DNA of 64,000 nucleotides from Candidatus Eremiobacteria bacterium (GTDB lineage: Bacteria; Vulcanimicrobiota; Vulcanimicrobiia; Vulcanimicrobiales; Vulcanimicrobiaceae), in NCBI GenBank assembly GCA_963737065.1, contig CAVTRC010000001.1, positions 608,001 to 672,000 on the forward strand, read 5' to 3'. The notes under the pieces are model-generated. The model did no database searches. It was given only the letters and a program-made list of their open reading frames with translations, and had not been told where the DNA came from. Position numbers and translations under genes: made by a program. The first letter of the stretch is position 1. Every line of letters starts with the position of its first letter. Shown in pieces: positions 51,231 to 61,050 of this stretch.

Positions 51231-51713
51231 ATGTATTGGTACTGCCGGGCATTTCTTTTGTCTTTTTTTGCAATCGTCGGCACGACGGCGGCGATGGCGG
51301 CCGCACCGAACGTCACGCTGCGGCTCGACGCCGCACTCGTTCACGTCGTAAACGGCAAGGTGACGACATCGGCTGTCGATCGTCCGCTCAAGGCCGGTGA
51401 CGTGATCGAATATCGCATCGTTGCGCGTAATGCCGGCAATGCCTCGGCGTTGGCGTTTTCGCCCCTAGGGAAAGTTCCCGCGCATACCGAGTTTTTGCAA
51501 AATGAAGGCGCGAGTCGCGCGGCGCGCGCTTCATATACGCTCGATGGAACGCATTGGTCGGAACATCCCATGGTCCGTGCAGTGAAATCGTCGGGACACG
51601 TCGTTATGGAACCGGCGCCGCGCTCGCTCTATCGCGCGGTGCGATGGACGCTCTCGGGCGCGCTCGTGCCGTCGCAAACGGCGACGTTCGCGTATGAAGT
51701 GCGCGTGCAATGA
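51231..51713 (+). CDS. Small exported DUF11-like single-domain protein (putative chaperone/cap of a fibre system)
   Basis: Signal peptide; KAGDVIEYRIVARNAG...PLGKVPAHTEF...VRW...TFAYEVRVQ*. Confidence 0.8.
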   Translation: MYWYCRAFLLSFFAIVGTTAAMAAAPNVTLRLDAALVHVVNGKVTTSAVDRPLKAGDVIEYRIVARNAGNASALAFSPLGKVPAHTEFLQNEGASRAARASYTLDGTHWSEHPMVRAVKSSGHVVMEPAPRSLYRAVRWTLSGALVPSQTATFAYEVRVQ

Positions 51714-54187
51714 AACTCCACCGGTCTCTTGCGGCGGCGGGCGCGTTTGCGCTCGCCGTTCAACTCACGTCGCCGCTCACGGTTAATGCCGCGAACGGCC
51801 ACGACGACCCCGGAACGCAGGTGACGAACACCGCGAACGCAGTCTATAAAGACGCCGGCGGAAACTCGTACACCACCACCTCCAATACGGTAACGGTGAC
51901 GGTGCAAAACGCGCCGACTCTAACGAATACGCCGGGCACCGGTTCCCCGTATGCGCCGGGACAGGTCGTAACCGACACGTTCGTGCTCACGAACACCGGT
52001 AACGGCGCGGGCACGTTCCAAGTCTCCGATACGTCATCCGCGCCTACGGCGAGCTCCGATGCGGTGCTCGGCGGAAGCGATGCGGCAGCGGCGACGCTCG
52101 GCAACGGCGCGGCGACGTGCACGACACCCGCCGGCTCGCAATCGGCGCCGTGCAAATACGCGGCGACGGTCGGCGGCACGACATACTATTTCACGAGCCT
52201 CAATGGAACGAGCGACAACAACTCGCTCGACTATTGGCTACTCCACACGAATCCGGCGACCGCCGCAGGTTCGTCGATCACCGTCTCCGTGTACTACGCG
52301 CTCGCGACGAGTGCTTCGACGCCCGCGACGGTAACATCGAGCATCTACGCATCGGTGGCGTATCCTGCCGCAGGCAGTGCGCCTGCTACGACGTCGTCCT
52401 CTGTCAACGCAACGGAGTCGAATACCGTTACCGCGGACGCGCGCCTCGACTTGTACAAGGCGAGCAGTCAGAATCCGGCGACCGGCGACATCACGTACAC
52501 GGTCTCTGCGCACAACGGAGGCGCGTTTGCCGCGAAGGATCTGCAATCGGTGAAAGCGCTGCTCGGCAGTGCGACTGCGGGCGTGCTGATCTCCGACAAG
52601 GTTCCGCAGTTCGGTGGGTCGCCGCTTTCGCTCAGCAATTCGGGCACGGTCACCGTTACGCCGAACGCGACGTATGGATTTGCGACCGGCGCGACGGCCG
52701 ACCTGTATTACTCGACGTCGGCAACCGGTACGACTAGCTGGACGAAAGCGACAGGAAATCTTCCGACGGACGGCAGCGTAACCTACGTTGCAATCTTCAT
52801 TCACGGTGGGACCTGCACGAGCGCCGGATACGAGCTGTGCGCGGACACCGGTCATGCGACGACGCCCGGTAACAGCAACGTTGCCTCCGCTGCGGCGATT
52901 GCGTTCTCGTTCACGGTCGTTCAGCCGAGTGGGCCCGGATCGGCCAACGCGAACGCAGTCAAAAACCTCGCGAACGGTGTCATCGGCGACAACCAGTCGA
53001 CGGAGCACATACTCGGACCGGGCATTCCGGGCGGAACGGCCGATACGCCATCGGCGACGCCCATCACAACGAGCGGTCAAGGCATAAACAACACCACGAA
53101 CACCTCGACGAACGGCGCGTCCAATCAGATCGGAAATCAAGCCCTTGCGTCGTACGCGCCGCAAAACGGTCCGTTCGGACAACCGGCCGCCGTTGGGTCG
53201 TATGACGGCGTCGTCGGATCGAATGGATCCAACGATTTCACAGCGTTTCCTTTCGGTCTCGCGGGCGATAGCGTCGTTAATACGAGTACGACGGTGGGAT
53301 CACCGGTAACCGCGGCAACGCTGGGCTCCGCGCAAACGATCTGCGTCGCGCATACGCTCAAAAACAACGGGAATCACGACGACTCGTTCAACATCGTCGC
53401 CACCGTTCCAACGGCATACCAGGTTCCGTCGACCAGCGGTGGAACTGCGGTCGCCGGCTGGAAGACCGGCGTTTATTCCGATGCGGCGTGCAGCGCCGCG
53501 CTCGGCGGATCGACCGACGGATCGCCGGCGGCGACCGCATCGAACGTTGCGATCGCCTCGGGCAACTCGCTCAACTATTACGTGAAATACGTCATTCCAG
53601 CGGGAGTGAAGTACTTCTACCGCTTTGACGCTTCGATCGTTGCGACCAGTGTCGGCAGCGGTTCGCAAAGCGACTCGACGCACGATGAACTTTACTCGGG
53701 ATTCGTCGCGCTCACGAAATCGCAGAATGTCACGAGCAACGGTTGCCCTTCGGGTGTGTCGCCGTCGTATGCAGCCGGCACCGTCTGTCCGACCGGCGTG
53801 ATCGCCTACACGGTCGACTATCGCAACCTCGTGATGGGCACGAGCAGCACCAACATCTCGTTCAACGCGTGCACGACGCAAGCGGGATCGTTGCAGATAA
53901 CGGATGACGGCACGCTCTCGACATCCAGCTCGACGACCACCGTCGCCAATTGGGCATCGTTTGCATCAATGACGGCCGCTCCGTCGGACTCGAGCGCCTC
54001 GTCGTCGTTCACGTACGCCACCGGCGTTCCCGCGGCCGGCGCAAGCCCGACGTGGAGTGCGGCGGCGACGAAGTTTGTCGACACGGTCGGTGGCTCGTCG
54101 TTCCAACTCGTTCCAAAAAACTACAGCGGTCCGTCGGCAACGCAAGGCAATCAGGGGACGGTGACGTTCTCCATCGCGGTGAAGTAA
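51710..54187 (+). CDS. Large exported Ser/Thr/Gly-rich multi-Ig/DUF11-like protein (putative major fibre subunit)
   Basis: Signal peptide, N-terminal PGTQVTNTANAVYKD...SNTV hairpin, Ig-like repeats (LTNTGN, LKNNGN), C-terminal LTK...YTVDYRN...ITDDG...VTFSIAVK. Confidence 0.8.
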   Translation: MKLHRSLAAAGAFALAVQLTSPLTVNAANGHDDPGTQVTNTANAVYKDAGGNSYTTTSNTVTVTVQNAPTLTNTPGTGSPYAPGQVVTDTFVLTNTGNGAGTFQVSDTSSAPTASSDAVLGGSDAAAATLGNGAATCTTPAGSQSAPCKYAATVGGTTYYFTSLNGTSDNNSLDYWLLHTNPATAAGSSITVSVYYALATSASTPATVTSSIYASVAYPAAGSAPATTSSSVNATESNTVTADARLDLYKASSQNPATGDITYTVSAHNGGAFAAKDLQSVKALLGSATAGVLISDKVPQFGGSPLSLSNSGTVTVTPNATYGFATGATADLYYSTSATGTTSWTKATGNLPTDGSVTYVAIFIHGGTCTSAGYELCADTGHATTPGNSNVASAAAIAFSFTVVQPSGPGSANANAVKNLANGVIGDNQSTEHILGPGIPGGTADTPSATPITTSGQGINNTTNTSTNGASNQIGNQALASYAPQNGPFGQPAAVGSYDGVVGSNGSNDFTAFPFGLAGDSVVNTSTTVGSPVTAATLGSAQTICVAHTLKNNGNHDDSFNIVATVPTAYQVPSTSGGTAVAGWKTGVYSDAACSAALGGSTDGSPAATASNVAIASGNSLNYYVKYVIPAGVKYFYRFDASIVATSVGSGSQSDSTHDELYSGFVALTKSQNVTSNGCPSGVSPSYAAGTVCPTGVIAYTVDYRNLVMGTSSTNISFNACTTQAGSLQITDDGTLSTSSSTTTVANWASFASMTAAPSDSSASSSFTYATGVPAAGASPTWSAAATKFVDTVGGSSFQLVPKNYSGPSATQGNQGTVTFSIAVK

Positions 54188-54191
54188 CGAC

Positions 54192-56297
54192 GTGAACCGC
54201 TTCGGTTGGATCGCGGCGATCGTGCTGTGCGCTCTTGCAGCACAGCACGTCGCCGCGTCCCCGACCGGCGGAACGAGCATCGTGAACGAAGCGTCCGCAA
54301 CGTATAGCGATGTCTTCTCGCACGCCTATCAGACCACTTCCAATGCGATCGTCTCGCAAGTCGTGAGCCTCTCGTCGCTCGTCGTCTCGCCGAAACAAAA
54401 TGCGGCGGCACCGGCGTCGGATACGGTTGCGGTGAACGCATCCGCCACGCGCGTCTTCACGATCACCAACACATCGAACATCACCGACGCGTATCGCATC
54501 ACGAGTCTCCAGACGGGGCCACTCGGCGTTACGTCGATTGCATGGATCACACCGCCGGGATCGCTCGCCACGGCGGTCAACGGGAGTGCATCGCCCCAGA
54601 TCGGGCCCGGTTCATCGATCTCCGTTCGCGTGACGCTTTCTACGAGCGGACTCAACGTCGGCCAGTCGGTTCCGATCGCGCTCACCGCGCAGACGACGGT
54701 GACGCAGACCGGAAACGGTCTCGCGCACGATAGCGGTATGGAATGGGTGATCGGTGCGACGGGCCCGCACTTTTCGGGGCCGGCCGGTGCAAACACCACC
54801 GTCCTGAAGACCGTAAATAATGCGAGGCAGGTACAGACCCAACCGGGCGCAACCGTGACATTTCACATTGCTGCACTCAATAGCGGCGGCGCCGCGGCGA
54901 CGAACGTGCAGATCAGCGATCCGGTACCGGCGGGGTTGCGGGTTGATCTGTCATCGGCAGAGTTGAACGGTCAACCCGCGGGCGCGCAAGCGTCACTGAG
55001 CGGAAACACAATCGTGTTTCGCGTTCCGTCGATCGGCGCCCAGCAAAGCGTCGATGCGACGTTCAACGCGATCCTTCCGCCGGGAGAATCGCTCGGCGAG
55101 TCCTTCGTGAACGTCGCGACGACAGCCGCAGACGGCATTCCCGCAACCGCAACGACTCCCGCCGATGTTTTTTCTGGTTCATCGAACATCGTCTTCGATG
55201 GTTTTGCGGGTGCTGGACATCCGATCGCCGGCGCGGTTATCGCGCTGCTCGATGCGAACGGGAAACCGGTCGGAATCAACGCGCCGAATCCGTCGGTTAC
55301 CGGACCGGACGGCAAGTACGCGCTCCCGCTTTCAGTTCAACTGATTCCCGCAGCGGGCGCGCATTTTACGCTGACGATTTCGGCACCGTCGTATCTAAAC
55401 CGGCGCATCACCCTGGTGATTACGCCCACCGCGAACGGGTTCTACAACGTCTCCGAAACATCGGCTGACGCGCAACCGATCGCGGCGGCCGGCGGCTTCA
55501 CCCTCACGATGAACAACGTTCATCTTCAAGACGTCTTCGGGCTGTTCGGCAACCTGCCGCTCTTCGCGCTCAGAACGATCTCCGTCACGAAGACGTCCGA
55601 CAAACAAGCGGCGTCTGCGGGGGACCGGGTGATCTTCACACTCGGTCTGCAAAATCAAACGACGTTTGGAATCGCGAACGTTCGTGTCGTCGATACGATG
55701 CAAGCCGGATTTGCGTATCTGAACGGAACGGCGAGAGTTGACGGGCTTCCACTCGAACCGCTGGTATCTGGACGCACGCTTTCGTGGGTCTTTTCATCGA
55801 TTGCACCGGCGCAGATGCACACGATCACCTATGGCGCAACGATCGTGCCCGGCGTTGCTGCGGGAAGTACCCTTGCGAACAGCGTTTCGGTGAACGGCAG
55901 CGCGGCGATCGGCGGCGTGAATACCGGCGCTTCCGCAAGTACGAGCGTGATGGTCATCGACGGCGTGCTTTCCATGCGCCGCGTCGTGACCGGTAGAGTA
56001 TTCTTCGACGACGCGCATCGCGGTTATTTCGTGCGCGGCGACCGCGCGATCTCCAGCGTTCGCGTCGTCCTTGAAGACGGTTCGTTCGCGATCACCGATT
56101 CCGGCGGCGCGTTTTCGTTTCCGTCCGTTCGCCCCGGATTGCATGTCGTGCGAATCGATCCGCTGACGTTGCCGGCGTCCGCGCGCGCACAGAGTGATGC
56201 GCCGATGAATTCCAGTCGCTCGTACGAGCAGCTATTGCACGGCGTGCTCGACGACGGAACGATGGAAGACGTCGAATTTGCGGTGGCACCGCGATGA
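54192..56297 (+). CDS. Exported protein with two DUF11 domains and a C-terminal SdrD-B/Cna-B-like domain (putative base/adaptor)
   Basis: GGTSIVNEASATYSD...SNAI; LKTV..PGATVTF...SDPVPAG; VTKTSD..AGDRVIF...VDTM; GRVFFDD...TDSGGAFSF...PG. Confidence 0.8.
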   Translation: MNRFGWIAAIVLCALAAQHVAASPTGGTSIVNEASATYSDVFSHAYQTTSNAIVSQVVSLSSLVVSPKQNAAAPASDTVAVNASATRVFTITNTSNITDAYRITSLQTGPLGVTSIAWITPPGSLATAVNGSASPQIGPGSSISVRVTLSTSGLNVGQSVPIALTAQTTVTQTGNGLAHDSGMEWVIGATGPHFSGPAGANTTVLKTVNNARQVQTQPGATVTFHIAALNSGGAAATNVQISDPVPAGLRVDLSSAELNGQPAGAQASLSGNTIVFRVPSIGAQQSVDATFNAILPPGESLGESFVNVATTAADGIPATATTPADVFSGSSNIVFDGFAGAGHPIAGAVIALLDANGKPVGINAPNPSVTGPDGKYALPLSVQLIPAAGAHFTLTISAPSYLNRRITLVITPTANGFYNVSETSADAQPIAAAGGFTLTMNNVHLQDVFGLFGNLPLFALRTISVTKTSDKQAASAGDRVIFTLGLQNQTTFGIANVRVVDTMQAGFAYLNGTARVDGLPLEPLVSGRTLSWVFSSIAPAQMHTITYGATIVPGVAAGSTLANSVSVNGSAAIGGVNTGASASTSVMVIDGVLSMRRVVTGRVFFDDAHRGYFVRGDRAISSVRVVLEDGSFAITDSGGAFSFPSVRPGLHVVRIDPLTLPASARAQSDAPMNSSRSYEQLLHGVLDDGTMEDVEFAVAPR

Positions 56298-59200
56298 AGC
56301 GGTTGGGAAGAGCGTTGCAGTGTGCGGGCGCCGCGCTTATGGTCGCGTCGTTTATGACGTCGATGACGACCCGCGTTTCCGATGCCGATACGGCGGCCGG
56401 CGCGGCGACGGCAACGTTCGTCGCGCCGAACCCGGGCAGCGCTGCGCCGATCGGCGCAACCAACGTCATCATCTCGACCCAACTCGGCAGTTCGATCGAG
56501 TTGCTCGACGACGGCGAACTCGTCGACGGAAAGCACCTCGGTAAGCGAACGTTCAACAAATCGACCGGCGAGGCGCAATGGTTTTTCTACGGCGTCACAT
56601 TGCACCCGGGACCGAACGAACTCGTCGCGACCGCGCTCCGCGCGCCCGGGTTACGTGGAACGCCGGCGACATTGACCGTCTATGGACCCGGTGACGCGCA
56701 GACAATTCGCGCGGAGTTCGGATCGCATTTACGTGCCGATGGAAAAACGATCGCTCCGCTCAATATTACGGTCAGCGACCGGTACGGCAATGCTGCGGCG
56801 CCCGCGCAACGTGTGGACGTGCGAATTTTGCGCGGAAACGTAACCTTCGGCGATCTGCCGAAAGACGGTACGAACGCCGCACCGGCGTCGCCGGACGTTC
56901 TCACTTCGCCCGCGCCGCAGGGCGCGCTTTCCGCGCAAGTGCCGCTTCCCGTCGGTGGATATCTGTCGCTTCCCGTCGTGTCGGGAACGCTCGCCGGCGC
57001 ATTCGACATCGAGGTACGCGTCGGCAACGCGTATCTTCGGCGTTCGTTCTACGTCGAGCCATACGTTCGCCCCGCATTCGTTACGGGGCTTGCGTCGGTC
57101 GGCGTCGGCGCCGTCCCGGGTGACGTCGACGGCGACGGTATCGAAGACGGCGGCGGAGCGCGCCGCGAGCGCGCAGCGATTTTCGCAACGGGAGCCGTTG
57201 GACGCACGCTCGTGACCGCCGGCTACGAATCGCAAAACCGTCTGTCGCCCGTTTCGTCTCTCGGTGCGCCGGTCGATTCGCCCAATAGCCGTCCGTATTT
57301 GACGTACGGCGACAGCTCGACGATCGCACAGCCGTATCGCTCGCAAGATCACTTCTACGCGCGCGTGGATCGCGGAAGGTCGAGCGCATTGTGGGGGCAG
57401 TACGTTGCGGACGTCGGGCCACCGGACGTGGGCGGATATCAGCAGCTCTTGAACGGCGCGAAGGTCGATGTGTCGCTCGGTGCGAGCGGACGCGCGCGTG
57501 TAACCGCGTTTACCGCGCGCAATCAGCAAGCGTTCATTTCGACGATTCTTCCGTTGACGGGACTCGCCACGCTTTCCGCACCGCTTCACCCCGACATCGT
57601 CGTCGGCTCGGATCTGCTGCAGTTGGTGACGCTCGACCGCGCGACGGGTTTGATGATTCGAGAGACACCACTCTTGCGAAACGTCGACTACACAATCGAT
57701 TACGCGACGGGCATCCTGCGTTTCATCAACGTACCGCTACCGTACGACCCGCAGTTCAATCCGCAAGTCGTCTCGCTGCAATACGAATACCAGGGGCCGG
57801 GCGTCGCATCACAGACGACCGGTGCGCAGGTCAGCTACGCGCTTTCCCTCGACGGCCGCACGACGGCCCGTGCAGGTTACGTCAACGACGCAACCGGAAC
57901 GCAAAATTTCGCGCTCGTCACACAATCGCTAGCGCGGACATGGGCGAACGGATCGTTTACCGTTTCTCATGCTTCCAGCGCCGGGTTCGTTCCGAGCGCC
58001 GGAAGCTCGACGCAACTGGGCGCGGCGACCGTGGTGCCGCATAACGGCGAAGCGATCTCCGTCGCGCTCGATGAACGGAATGCCACGAATGCCGTTGCGC
58101 TCGGATATCAGTCGACTAGCGCGGGTTATAACGATCCGTTCGGTGGATTCAGCTCGCCCGGAACGCGCGCATATCGTGCGATCTATTCACTCGGCACGGC
58201 GCGTGCCGGTCAACTGCAAATGAACCTCTCGGGTGAAAGTAACACCGGCATCGGAGCGGCAAGCAGCGAGCTCGACGGTGCGGTGACGTACCTGCGCGCC
58301 CTCACGTCCCGCTTGACGATGAGCGCGGGCGTTGCCGAGCATCGCCAAACGATCGGGGCGCAGCCGTCGGCGTCTCCCGCTGCGAACGTCGCATTAGCGA
58401 ATACGCAGCAGACGCAGGCGCAGGCATCCCTCACCTACCGCATGCCGGAGCGTCTCGGCATTTCGGTTTCGGAATCCGACACGCTGCGCGGCAGTGATGC
58501 GGGCTCAACGCAACCGTCTCAGACGCAACTCGAAGCGACGTACGACTTGCCAAAGCGCGGCCGTTTGTTCTTCCGCGAACTTTGGAGCGATCAACCGTCG
58601 GCGACGTTTGCGAATTCAACGGCAAATCTCAATATCGCGTCGGGCTCGACCCATTCGATGCAATTCGGGGTCGAACAGCCGCTCTCGGCGGCAACGACGG
58701 TTAGCTCGCAATACGTCATCGATCAAGTCGCGTCGGGCGTGAATATCTATGCCGCGGCAGGCATTGACGAACGCGTGCATCTCGGCAAAGCAATTGCCGG
58801 AAACTTGACGTTGCAATCGGCAAACGCAGTTGGCGCGGGAGCGGAGGGATTCACCGTTCTCGGTGCCGCGCTCACATACGCGCCGGCGAGCGGGAAGTTT
58901 CGCAGTTCGGTTTCGTATCAAGATCGAACGGGCGCGTCGTCCGGATCGACCGTTTCCGCGGCAATCGCAGGTCATATCAGCGACGCTCTCTCAGCGGTGG
59001 GCTTCATTCAACGCGCATACGGCAACGGGATCAACGCGATCGACGATCGGTTGTCGGTTGCGTATCGTCCGCGCGCCGACGATCGCCTCATCTCACTCTT
59101 CGATTACGAGCGAGGCAACGAGACCGGGCTCGCCGGTGAAGCGGCGAACGTCGCCTCGTTCGAAGAGTTGTTTCGCATGACGCAGACCTTTGAACTCGCC

Positions 59201-59527
59201 GGCCGGTTTGCATACAAATTCGACGGCGGCGGCGAGTACGCGGCGCGCACCGTGCTGTGGTTGGGACGCGCAACGCAGCATGTCGGCTCGCGCGGTGATG
59301 TCGCGCTCGAGGCGCGGACGGCCATCGTTCCGGGCGCGACCGGCGCACGCACGACCGCCGTCGCCGCCGAAGCCGGCGAGACCATTGGGCGCACGGCGCG
59401 CGCCGCGGTTGGTTACAACATCGCCGGAAGCGTCGATCCGTCGCTGCTCGGCGTCCCGCAACGCAAAGGCATCTACATAACCTTCACAACGCTGATCGAT
59501 CGTATCTTCGGGTGGGGAAAACCATGA
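56294..59527 (+). CDS. Large exported protein: Ig-like N-terminal domains plus predicted outer-membrane beta-barrel
   Basis: Signal peptide; LHPGPNEL, LRADG Ig/invasin-like motifs; YGDSS; DYTIDYATG.LRF; long run of amphipathic beta-strands ending KGIYITFT. Confidence 0.75.
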   Translation: MKRLGRALQCAGAALMVASFMTSMTTRVSDADTAAGAATATFVAPNPGSAAPIGATNVIISTQLGSSIELLDDGELVDGKHLGKRTFNKSTGEAQWFFYGVTLHPGPNELVATALRAPGLRGTPATLTVYGPGDAQTIRAEFGSHLRADGKTIAPLNITVSDRYGNAAAPAQRVDVRILRGNVTFGDLPKDGTNAAPASPDVLTSPAPQGALSAQVPLPVGGYLSLPVVSGTLAGAFDIEVRVGNAYLRRSFYVEPYVRPAFVTGLASVGVGAVPGDVDGDGIEDGGGARRERAAIFATGAVGRTLVTAGYESQNRLSPVSSLGAPVDSPNSRPYLTYGDSSTIAQPYRSQDHFYARVDRGRSSALWGQYVADVGPPDVGGYQQLLNGAKVDVSLGASGRARVTAFTARNQQAFISTILPLTGLATLSAPLHPDIVVGSDLLQLVTLDRATGLMIRETPLLRNVDYTIDYATGILRFINVPLPYDPQFNPQVVSLQYEYQGPGVASQTTGAQVSYALSLDGRTTARAGYVNDATGTQNFALVTQSLARTWANGSFTVSHASSAGFVPSAGSSTQLGAATVVPHNGEAISVALDERNATNAVALGYQSTSAGYNDPFGGFSSPGTRAYRAIYSLGTARAGQLQMNLSGESNTGIGAASSELDGAVTYLRALTSRLTMSAGVAEHRQTIGAQPSASPAANVALANTQQTQAQASLTYRMPERLGISVSESDTLRGSDAGSTQPSQTQLEATYDLPKRGRLFFRELWSDQPSATFANSTANLNIASGSTHSMQFGVEQPLSAATTVSSQYVIDQVASGVNIYAAAGIDERVHLGKAIAGNLTLQSANAVGAGAEGFTVLGAALTYAPASGKFRSSVSYQDRTGASSGSTVSAAIAGHISDALSAVGFIQRAYGNGINAIDDRLSVAYRPRADDRLISLFDYERGNETGLAGEAANVASFEELFRMTQTFELAGRFAYKFDGGGEYAARTVLWLGRATQHVGSRGDVALEARTAIVPGATGARTTAVAAEAGETIGRTARAAVGYNIAGSVDPSLLGVPQRKGIYITFTTLIDRIFGWGKP

Positions 59528-61050
59528 CGCGGCTATTGATGCGTCTCGTGGTCGCGGCGGCGTTCGCGATCGTGACGTGCGCGTTTGCGAGCGCCTCGAC
59601 GATCATGGTCTTGAGCGACAGCGCGGGCGTCTATTTGATCGATTCCGCGACCGGCAAAGTCGTTCAGTCGTACGGCAACCTCTTCTCCGGAAGCAGCGCG
59701 CAGGACGTCGCTGAAGACCTCAACGGCAACCTGTACGTGACCGATAGCTCCGGCAACCTCCGAAAGGCGACGTTCAACGCGAACGCCGGATCGTCGACCG
59801 GCGCGTATGCCGCGGCGACCGTCGTCGGCGCGATCCCCGGATATACTTCCGCGGTTGCGCGTCTTGCGTGGGATCCCACCACGTTGTATTGCGCGACCGG
59901 CTGCCTCGTGACGATGAACAGCAGCGGAAATTCGCTCGATTGGATCAATCCGGCGACGGCCGCCATCGTAAAAAGCGTCGCGGTGAGTCCGGCCATCTCG
60001 GGTGGCGGCGACCTTGTCATCGACCCCACTGCGGTGAACAACGCGGCCGTCTACGTCGTCTCCGGAAAAGCGTTTTACAGCGTCAATCCGTCGACGGGCG
60101 CGTCGACCTCGATCGCGACGTTTTCGTGGCCGGGGCTCACGGCGAATCTGACGGGACTTGCGCTCCTGGCGAACGGCGATCTGGTTGGATGCGAACAAAA
60201 AGGCAGCGGAACGGCCTGGACGCTTTGGGAATTCACGACCGCCGGAGCGCTCGTCACGAGCCAAACGGGCATTAGCACCGGAAGCGACGTGGTGAACGAC
60301 CTCGCTTCGGTTCCGGCGACGTTCACGACGTCGAAAACCGGCACCGCGAATGCGGGCCTCGGCGACACGATGATTTATACCGTCACATTGAAGAACACGA
60401 GTTACTTCACCGTGCCGACGGCCGCGATGACCGACCCATATCCTTCGACGATCAGCGTTTTATCGTCGCCGGCGCCGTCGTGCAGTGTTTCCGGCGGCGG
60501 CAGTTGCACCGCGACGCTGAACCCGAGCGCAAGCCCTTCGCCCGACGTTGTCGCAAGCGTTACGAACTTGGCCGCCGGCGCAACCGCCACGATGACGTTC
60601 GAAGGTTCACCGAGCGCGAGTGCGAGCGGGACCGTCTCGAACACGGCAAACTCGAGCGTTCCGTTCGATCCCAACGAGTACGGCGGCTCGACCGCTGCAA
60701 CGAACACCATCAACACAACGATCACGGCGTCCGAATTTGCGAAACAGGTAGCAAACATCACGGAGGGCCTTGCGCCGGGCACGAGCTTGATCGGCAAACC
60801 GGGTGATGTCGTGGAATACACCCTGACGTTCACGAACCGCCGCGGCTTTTCGCTGGCGTCCTTTCAAATCAACGACCCGGTGCCGACGGGAACGACGTAC
60901 GTCGCAAACAGCGCAACGTGCATAAGTCAGCCCGCGGGGCTCACCTGCGCGCCGTCGCAGTCAGGCGGCGTCGTGTCGTTTGTTTACACCGGCACGAGCT
61001 TGGCCGCCAACGGCGTCGTCAGCGCAAAGTTCCGCGTAACGATCAACTAA
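59524..61050 (+). CDS. Exported beta-propeller plus two DUF11 domains (putative tip adhesin)
   Basis: Signal peptide; propeller-like repeats (DVAEDLNGNLYV, GDLVIDP, GLALLANGDL, DLAS); SKTG..GDTMIYTV..TDPYP..VSNTA; AKQV..PGDVVEYTL..NDPVP..KFRVTIN*. Confidence 0.8.
   Translation: MTRLLMRLVVAAAFAIVTCAFASASTIMVLSDSAGVYLIDSATGKVVQSYGNLFSGSSAQDVAEDLNGNLYVTDSSGNLRKATFNANAGSSTGAYAAATVVGAIPGYTSAVARLAWDPTTLYCATGCLVTMNSSGNSLDWINPATAAIVKSVAVSPAISGGGDLVIDPTAVNNAAVYVVSGKAFYSVNPSTGASTSIATFSWPGLTANLTGLALLANGDLVGCEQKGSGTAWTLWEFTTAGALVTSQTGISTGSDVVNDLASVPATFTTSKTGTANAGLGDTMIYTVTLKNTSYFTVPTAAMTDPYPSTISVLSSPAPSCSVSGGGSCTATLNPSASPSPDVVASVTNLAAGATATMTFEGSPSASASGTVSNTANSSVPFDPNEYGGSTAATNTINTTITASEFAKQVANITEGLAPGTSLIGKPGDVVEYTLTFTNRRGFSLASFQINDPVPTGTTYVANSATCISQPAGLTCAPSQSGGVVSFVYTGTSLAANGVVSAKFRVTIN

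Follow-up and report, generated by a model that had tools for sequence, protein, structure and literature searches.

A 64,000-nucleotide stretch of DNA from a Candidatus Eremiobacteria bacterium (contig CAVTRC010000001.1, positions 608,001 to 672,000; hereafter the window) carries at 59524..61050, on the forward strand, a gene for a 508-amino-acid protein. On balance, this protein probably serves as an end subunit, of acceptor-only type, in a surface fibre made of split DUF11 (CLIPPER) domains. It consists of a predicted propeller head, a complete DUF11 domain, and a last DUF11 domain that stops before its closing strands, and candidate hairpins that could finish this last domain are encoded at the start of two other genes of the same operon. 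The reading as an end subunit is well supported in silico, by sequence comparison and by structural models, and a role as tip adhesin is plausible by analogy with chaperone-usher pili. We further infer a distal position in the fibre, incorporation ahead of all other subunits, ligand binding by the propeller, and a covalent Lys-Asn bond between subunits.

A complete and an unfinished DUF11 domain

The protein as a whole matches DUF11 above the cut-offs of both PF01345 (41.2 bits against 24.6, E 2.4e-10, in two stretches) and TIGR01451 of NCBIfam (53.2 bits against 24). The first domain (residues 263–401, 60310..60726) has its own two closing strands and, scanned alone, covers DUF11 profile positions 9–107 of 114. 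Its Lys-Asp-Asn triad, a predicted isopeptide site, is complete and is formed by K271 (AAA at 60334), D304 (GAC at 60433) and N373 (AAC at 60640). The Lys-to-Asp spacing of 33 residues equals that of the solved DUF11 structure 9IFR (715 to 748).

The second domain (residues 402–508, 60727..61047) retains K407 (AAA at 60742) and D451 (GAC at 60874) and ends in ...KFRVTIN. Scanned alone as residues 400–508, it covers profile positions 15–84 of 114; in the homologue from a distantly related genome, G010, the match spans positions 6–84 and reaches residue 108 of 109. The chain thus stops about 30 profile positions short. AlphaFold2 gives domain 1 twelve strand elements and domain 2 eight, equivalent to the first eight of domain 1. 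The part absent from domain 2 is the counterpart of the domain 1 segment that holds N373 and the closing strands, and the Asn strand and closing strand of a whole domain are both missing.

A word-indexed search returned 32 proteins at E <= 0.001, of which 28 were aligned; three short or partial sequences (P0029, P0030 and P0032) and one protein with a DUF11-only match (P0033, E 4e-4) were left out. The source names of the homologues include Elarobacter and Baltobacteraceae, of the Eremiobacterota. The chain ends at the identical column in all 28, exactly before the Asn strand. K271, D304 and D451 are present in 28/28, K407 in 27/28 and N373 in 26/28, and the single exception at K407 (P0026, a sequence with a frame-shifted middle) is frame-shifted and gapped at that point. 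The initial annotation had described a complete DUF11 domain beside a truncated one, and its coordinates and all five of its Lys, Asp and Asn codons proved exact; the last domain is indeed incomplete.

The last residue, Asn508 (61045–61047), is Asn in 26 of the 28 homologues. As a stand-in for the isopeptide Asn it is a less likely candidate, since it aligns to the strand preceding the Asn strand of domain 1 and since the final residue of other acceptor types is K, Q, L or F. K425, which is not conserved, was set aside as the reactive Lys. Each part of the protein also has a conserved pair of cysteines, namely C123/C127 in the head (59890–59904), C320/C328 in domain 1 (60481–60507) and C466/C475 in domain 2 (60919–60948), and these pairs fit disulfide-bonded loops of an exported protein.

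The 508-amino-acid protein has no donor hairpin, as the initial annotation had stated. The first propeller strand lies at residue 26, right after the signal peptide, and a hidden Markov model (HMM) of the donor hairpin finds no match in this frame even at E <= 10. Since it has no hairpin of its own, nothing could be added in front of the protein, and because it would accept a hairpin but cannot donate one, its place would be at one chain end only. An acceptor-only subunit of this kind would fix the polarity of the chain.

Donor hairpins in the operon

The 508-amino-acid protein is encoded by the fifth of five same-strand operon genes, and two of the others have donor hairpins. An 825-amino-acid putative shaft subunit, with donor and acceptor parts (51710..54187), has its hairpin at residues 29–76 (GTQVTNTANAVYKD...SNTVTVTVQ, 51794..51937, HMM E 8.8e-17), and a 701-amino-acid protein (54192..56297) has one at 54270..54350 (GTSIVNEASATYSD...SNAIV, HMM E 2e-4). 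Both hairpins are found at the mature N-termini, and both are similar in sequence to the hairpin that closes domain 1 (GTVSNTANSS...TNTINTTIT). In other genomes, the motif GT.[IV].N[TS]A...Y.D...Y..SN.V occurs at the mature N-terminus of 7/7 intact 825-like and 8/8 701-like proteins; an eighth 825-like open reading frame, in locus L035, is truncated and falls outside the first count. Both Asn residues of the hairpin are invariant in the eight donor sequences aligned.

The donor HMM was run against the window's own genome, which is 95% complete, using every stop-to-stop frame of 60 amino acids or more (29,779 in all). Only the 825- and 701-amino-acid proteins were matched, and the next frame followed at E 4.9. 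The acceptor thus named by the initial annotation has two candidate donors in this genome, both in its own operon. It keeps Lys and Asp while the partner proteins begin with an Asn hairpin, a division of residues that points to a joint split between chains.

The two donors differ at their other ends. The 825-amino-acid protein has a divergent C-terminal domain, which an acceptor HMM built from the 508-amino-acid family leaves undetected and in which Pfam finds no family. The 701-amino-acid protein, a putative terminator or anchor, has no acceptor end, and the 701-like proteins are donor-only because their C-terminus is a conserved motif other than DUF11. Intact 701-like proteins all end in LQRLLHG..DD..MEDV.FA.EP (56190–56294 in the window), unrelated to DUF11, and this motif may be a contact site for the 1077-amino-acid product of the adjoining gene or for the cell.

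Predicted docking of hairpin and acceptor

The joint was modelled as a complex of residues 400–508 of the acceptor, with the 28-row alignment, and residues 29–76 of the 825-amino-acid protein, with an alignment of eight rows. The hairpin is predicted to dock into the unfinished domain, with interface scores (ipSAE) of 0.82, 0.80 and 0.82, whereas none of three controls scored above 0.00. At least 94% of contacts are common to the runs, and the predicted local distance difference test (pLDDT) of the partner is at least 75. Of 157 solved complexes, 116 reach the mark, as do 2 of 215 mismatched pairs; since custom alignments were used here, these counts apply only approximately.

The predicted interface on the acceptor comprises residues 405–409 and 442–452. 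In the model, strand A with K407 contacts donor residues 30–33 (K407 itself contacts 30, 31 and 33), and residues 447–451 contact donor residues 14–18, beside the first Asn of the donor, which is residue 12 of the modelled piece and Asn40 of the 825-amino-acid protein. The model would therefore have the acceptor end described by the initial annotation take up the hairpin of the shaft protein.

The predicted propeller head

Residues 24–262 (59593..60309) are predicted to form a five-bladed beta-propeller with five four-stranded blades, as judged by AlphaFold2, fold matches and sub-threshold Pfam families. The full-length model (pLDDT 84.6, predicted template modelling score, pTM, 0.63) places 20 strands between residues 26 and 262, and the head modelled alone also has 20 strands (pLDDT 86.4, pTM 0.86). 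When the head is compared with known structures by VIA, independently of Foldseek, five-bladed propellers rank first. They include 2h2n, a calcium-activated nucleotidase or apyrase (Z 17.0, root-mean-square deviation 3.0, 214 residues aligned), the bacterial glutaminyl cyclases 3mbr (Z 16.5) and 3nok (Z 16.4), and YjiK (3qqz, Z 15.9). The likeness to enzymes is one of common fold and does not demonstrate common function. For the head alone, all top Foldseek matches are beta-propellers; for the full-length model, Foldseek gives only generic propeller-plus-Ig (immunoglobulin) architectures, such as integrin alpha and 1l0q. The N-terminal propeller of the initial annotation is thus predicted to have five blades.

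A sequence search of the Protein Data Bank with the whole protein gave nothing useful, its sole match being 7lsg_C at E 0.22. Propeller families of Pfam all remain below threshold, with DUF5074 in 11 of 12 members, DUF4394 in 8 and DUF6923 in 6, and the window protein falls short of the curated cut-offs of DUF5074 (19.4 bits against 27.2) and DUF4394 (14.3 against 29.6). An Atlas feature score of 0.93 to the DUF4394 and DUF6923 clusters serves as a lead only. The head family is narrow, since the head profile retrieves only 18 proteins at E <= 0.001, six of them at E <= 1e-10, among 1.84 billion representatives. A distant member, P0036 (483 amino acids), has the same three-part architecture and ends in ...KFRVTVN. 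The N-terminus of P0039, a long unrelated protein of 1095 amino acids, carries the same narrow-family propeller (E 6.5e-7) without DUF11 domains, so the head can occur in another architecture.

Conservation and genomic linkage

Among the aligned homologues, mean pairwise identity reaches 0.71 in the head, against 0.70 in the core of domain 1 and 0.69 in domain 2. The two distant relatives in genomes G010 and G020 show a different pattern, with identities to the window protein of 0.23 and 0.29 for the head, 0.26 and 0.33 for domain 1, and 0.49 and 0.49, here with no gaps, for domain 2. By these comparisons, constraint is strongest on the unfinished domain in both. The initial annotation had expected higher variability in the propeller among related genomes; this fails among orthologues and holds only for the two distant relatives.

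Fifteen loci with related genes were compared, 14 of them with upstream sequence. The 508-like gene follows a 1077-like gene in 3/14 (L009, L014 and L018), and in the other 11 it lies away from the operon. Among the genomes with such solitary loci, 5/5 examined carry a 1077-like gene elsewhere. A four-base overlap of start and stop with the upstream gene is found in the window, L014, L018 and G010, while the genes of L009 are directly adjacent without overlap. One 508-like gene, on a 2.1-Mb contig (L020:9944–12410), is broken over several frames, owing either to frameshifts of a pseudogene or to assembly errors.

A wider sample of 41 related genomes, which are not independent of one another, contained a 508-like match in seven and a 1077-like gene in 16, and all seven fall within the 16; three of the seven matches cover only the DUF11 part of longer proteins. 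None of the 25 genomes without a 1077-like gene has a 508-like match. Association with a fibre, on which the initial annotation depends, is indirect, because 11 of the 14 loci do not adjoin the operon; it is present elsewhere in all five such genomes examined.

Several of these results weigh against an end subunit of a fibre. The solitary loci lie in unrelated neighbourhoods, and since 11 of the 14 are unlinked, the fibre role there rests on an operon elsewhere in the genome, as examined in five. Among orthologues, the head does not exceed the stalk in variability. Domain 2 is modelled at high pLDDT without a partner (blocks of 86–97) and may be stable alone, and it weakly matches the compact family DUF7507 (E 1.3e-4, below cut-off). 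The score of the predicted complex may reflect the resemblance of the two pieces to an intact, solved DUF11 domain (9IFR), and likeness is not binding; that two pieces form an intact DUF11 domain is the hypothesis itself, yet no proof that they bind. Lastly, the fibre and the protein's place on the cell are predictions from genes and models.

These points could be accommodated by a free-standing secreted or surface propeller, an enzyme or binder on a stalk of two Ig-like domains, whose last domain is a short variant of DUF11 or DUF7507 and which belongs to no fibre. The closest folds to the head are indeed enzymes (the apyrase 2h2n and the glutaminyl cyclases 3mbr and 3nok), and the available text of one study has some DUF11 domains without isopeptide bonds and DUF7507 as a more compact relative (PMC12617251). 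Such a protein would have little reason, though, to conserve K407 and D451 without an Asn strand in cis, to end at the same column in 28/28 homologues exactly before that strand, or to hold its acceptor domain most constant in distant relatives. A predicted complex with clean controls, and 508-like matches confined to genomes with a 1077-like gene (7/7 against 0/25), also argue for a partner, and a free-standing propeller is accordingly considered unlikely.

Interchangeable acceptor-only heads

An end subunit with different heads is suggested by the genes that follow the 1077-like gene in other genomes. Of the five genomes with solitary loci that were examined, four (L032–L035) have the 160-825-701-1077 operon beside the fumarate hydratase-like gene that also adjoins it in the window, and none was found in L031. 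In all operons examined, the 701-like and 1077-like genes are neighbours. The slot that follows them elsewhere holds an acceptor-only protein with a Gly-rich head (GGGGG or GGxGG runs), for example at L033:13743–16202 (forward strand, 819 amino acids) and L035:5952–8426 (reverse strand, 824 amino acids). This type has a signal peptide, a middle region in common with the 825-amino-acid protein, and a truncated C-terminal domain, which keeps Lys and Asp (TK..., TDDG) and breaks off at the corresponding strand. It occurs in at least seven other genomes (loci L033, L035 and L036–L040), and genomes with it include G010, G004, G024, G013 (partial) and G022, but there is none in the window's own genome. 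The L033 and L035 proteins match no Pfam family. In G010, the 1077-like gene, the Gly-rich type and a 508-like gene are consecutive.

A third head type may be represented by a secreted protein of 632 amino acids in genome G045 (L032:15962–17860, forward strand), encoded downstream of the 1077-like gene, beyond an open reading frame of 263 amino acids. Its match to an L-type lectin is weak (E 0.0033; 17.8 bits, where the cut-off is 78.3), and the protein further has a complete DUF11 domain (E 1.5e-12) and a truncated last domain that ends in ...GSITYTVKVP. The donor HMM matches neither this protein nor the Gly-rich type.

Taken at sequence level, these genes suggest that a genome can carry several acceptor-only genes, with heads that can be exchanged and whose genes frequently lie outside the operon. 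A bolder proposal, which is possible but more doubtful than likely, is that one shaft hairpin accepts any of several acceptor-only cartridges with unrelated heads (propeller, Gly-rich or lectin-like), encoded in the operon slot or scattered in the genome, each fixed without an enzyme by a Lys-Asn isopeptide bond in trans. If so, the function of the tip would be swapped by gene shuffling, and differing tips could arise from a single shaft and pore.

The same multiplicity of genes could be read as regulation: acceptor-only proteins might consume free donor hairpins in the periplasm or at the surface and so limit polymerization, as chain-length regulators or decoys. Acceptor-only topology and the presence of several such genes per genome suit this notion, as does a further acceptor-like protein of 160 amino acids encoded in the operon. 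A decoy would need neither a conserved propeller of 240 residues nor a stalk domain, however, and if the chain lengthens at its acceptor end, no acceptor-only subunit can halt it. Regulation of this kind is, in consequence, the least probable of the readings considered here, and very improbable as such.

Export and proposed position in the fibre

The gene begins at an ATG (59524) that overlaps the TGA of the upstream gene as ATGA, and its stop codon ends at 61050. The only alternative start after the upstream stop is a GTG at 59512, four codons earlier, which leaves no room for a longer N-terminus. Residues 1–23 (59524..59592) form a signal peptide, assigned by eye from a basic n-region, a hydrophobic core and an AFA/SAS cleavage region. 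Inspection by eye found no lipobox in it. The model has a helix of low pLDDT at residues 2–18, within the signal peptide, and this is the region of lowest conservation among the homologues. The protein has neither an LPXTG sorting signal nor a hydrophobic tail at its C-terminus (...SAKFRVTIN).

The remaining genes of the operon provide context. The first (51231..51713) encodes the 160-amino-acid DUF11-like protein. The fourth (56294..59527) encodes the 1077-amino-acid protein, a putative outer-membrane component. No Pfam family covers the latter as a whole protein, and the assignment is a lead from language-model features, namely Atlas clusters named outer membrane protein (0.95) and Porin_4 on 33% of members (0.94). 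The 1077-like proteins have a common C-terminal ...Y.T.TS..DR.FGWG.. (59470–59524 in the window), which recalls, but does not match, the classical outer-membrane beta-signal. For the one member of the Eremiobacterota in culture, an envelope of Gram-negative type is described, outer membrane included (PMC9758169). Downstream, a convergent gene, named fumarate hydratase-like by eye from its translation, lies 8 bases from the 508-amino-acid gene.

An acceptor-only subunit could also sit at the opposite end of the fibre. The joint would then be the same, and the protein would anchor the fibre on the cell side, or would prime or cap assembly at the outer-membrane component, with its propeller holding the 1077-amino-acid protein or an envelope polymer and the 701-amino-acid protein at the distal end. 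The gene is translationally coupled to the 1077-amino-acid gene (ATGA, also in L014 and L018), the head is as well conserved among orthologues as an internal partner would be, and it has weak matches to BamB-type PQQ_2 (5 of 12 members, best E 5.9e-4) and PorZ_N (3 of 12). Moreover, the 701-amino-acid protein has domains like those of adhesin stalks, with CarboxypepD_reg and SdrD_B below threshold and RrgB_K2N_iso_D2 above cut-off.

A fixed anchor is harder to reconcile with the arrangement of the genes. It is the 701- and 1077-like genes that are always adjacent, whereas the slot after the 1077-like gene is interchangeable, holding the 508-type, the Gly-rich type or no visible acceptor gene. 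The 508-type is often unlinked, a pattern that suits a variable outer head better, and in chaperone-usher pili the donor-less subunit is the distal one (PMC11821415). An anchor at the cell is hence rather unlikely, and a distal head present once per fibre is favoured because heads are interchangeable and frequently unlinked and because the gene is coupled to a low-copy operon gene.

Proposed assembly

The end-subunit reading can be put together as follows. Export by Sec and removal of the signal peptide would yield a propeller head, a self-contained DUF11 stalk, and a last DUF11 domain without its two closing strands, including the one with the bond-forming Asn. The closing strands would be supplied by the N-terminal hairpin of the next subunit, that is, the 825-amino-acid shaft protein or possibly the 701-amino-acid protein. 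An invariant Asn of this hairpin would then lie beside Lys407 and Asp451, where an isopeptide bond between subunits could form without an enzyme. The finished chain would consist of the 508-amino-acid head, then (825-amino-acid)n, then the 701-amino-acid protein. By analogy with the FimH/PapG head, the FimA/PapA rod and the PapH terminator, the head would be incorporated first and the propeller presented at the distal tip.

If this is true, the 508-amino-acid protein is the working end of an outer-membrane-associated polymer that is jointed by halves of a self-crosslinking adhesin domain. One domain of 107 residues and one peptide of about 45 residues would be expected to give an adduct stable in sodium dodecyl sulfate. 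The system would also show how members of the Eremiobacterota, a barely cultivated soil phylum, attach to surfaces or partners.

Comparison with known systems

The closest architectural parallel is offered by chaperone-usher pili. In FimH and PapG, an N-terminal binding domain precedes a C-terminal Ig-like domain that is incomplete until the next subunit contributes its N-terminal extension; with no donor extension themselves, these adhesins are incorporated first and mark one end of the pilus (PMC11821415). The 508-amino-acid protein likewise combines a head with an incomplete Ig domain and has no donor extension, which is a matter of analogy and not of homology. No sequence relation to FimH and PapG was found: none of the five operon proteins matches the Fimbrial, PapD or PapC/usher families of Pfam and NCBIfam at E <= 0.1. 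In addition, a hairpin of two strands is donated here instead of one strand, the incomplete domain is a DUF11 with a Lys/Asp pair, such that the joint may be covalent, and the head is a propeller in place of a lectin jelly-roll. The haloarchaeal "tafi" fimbriae (DUF1102) were considered and belong to another family, offering only an analogy for models of tip, adapter, shaft and anchor.

The domain itself is that of the DUF11/CLIPPER fibrillar adhesins (PF01345; 9IFR), for which whole domains and intrachain bonds only are described in the available text (PMC12617251). Domain 1 is of this kind, with a score above the Pfam cut-off, the Lys-Asp-Asn triad and the 33-residue spacing of 9IFR. In contrast, the last domain of the protein breaks off at position 84 of 114, and it is other genes that begin with the Asn strands.

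Intersubunit locks have been proposed elsewhere. BsaA of Clostridium perfringens, of the TasA family, is described in the accessible part of a preprint as assembling by "donor strand exchange and lock", with a proposed intermolecular N-E-K isopeptide bond (bioRxiv 10.1101/2024.11.04.621531). Both there and in the present proposal, an N-terminal segment inserts into the sheet of the next subunit, and the isopeptide lock proposed would need no enzyme. BsaA differs in fold and family, has a Gram-positive host and forms a homopolymer, and the accessible part describes no head-bearing, acceptor-only end subunit. Similarly, the Sulfolobus acidocaldarius thread holds its subunits together through isopeptide bonds as well as donor strand complementation (PMC9715654), though this filament is archaeal, is built from another subunit family and, in the text available, has no propeller-headed end subunit. 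Full-text searches gave no description of a fibre of split DUF11 domains; the nearest published mechanisms are those of BsaA and the archaeal thread. Tip pilins of Gram-positive bacteria that are assembled by sortase differ again, as the 508-amino-acid protein has neither an LPXTG motif nor a membrane anchor.

Split isopeptide domains are also familiar from protein engineering. SpyCatcher and SpyTag are the two parts of such a domain, one a piece with the Lys and the catalytic acid and the other a small piece with the partner residue, and they bond spontaneously. That split was engineered from a CnaB domain, whereas the present one would be natural, would involve a CnaA-like DUF11 domain and would build a polar fibre. 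If the reading is correct, the protein-ligation tool kit would gain a natural split-isopeptide pair from a CnaA-like domain. New in the present analysis are chiefly the five-bladed head, the restricted set of partners, and the exchangeable, often unlinked, acceptor-only heads, the last of which go beyond the initial annotation.

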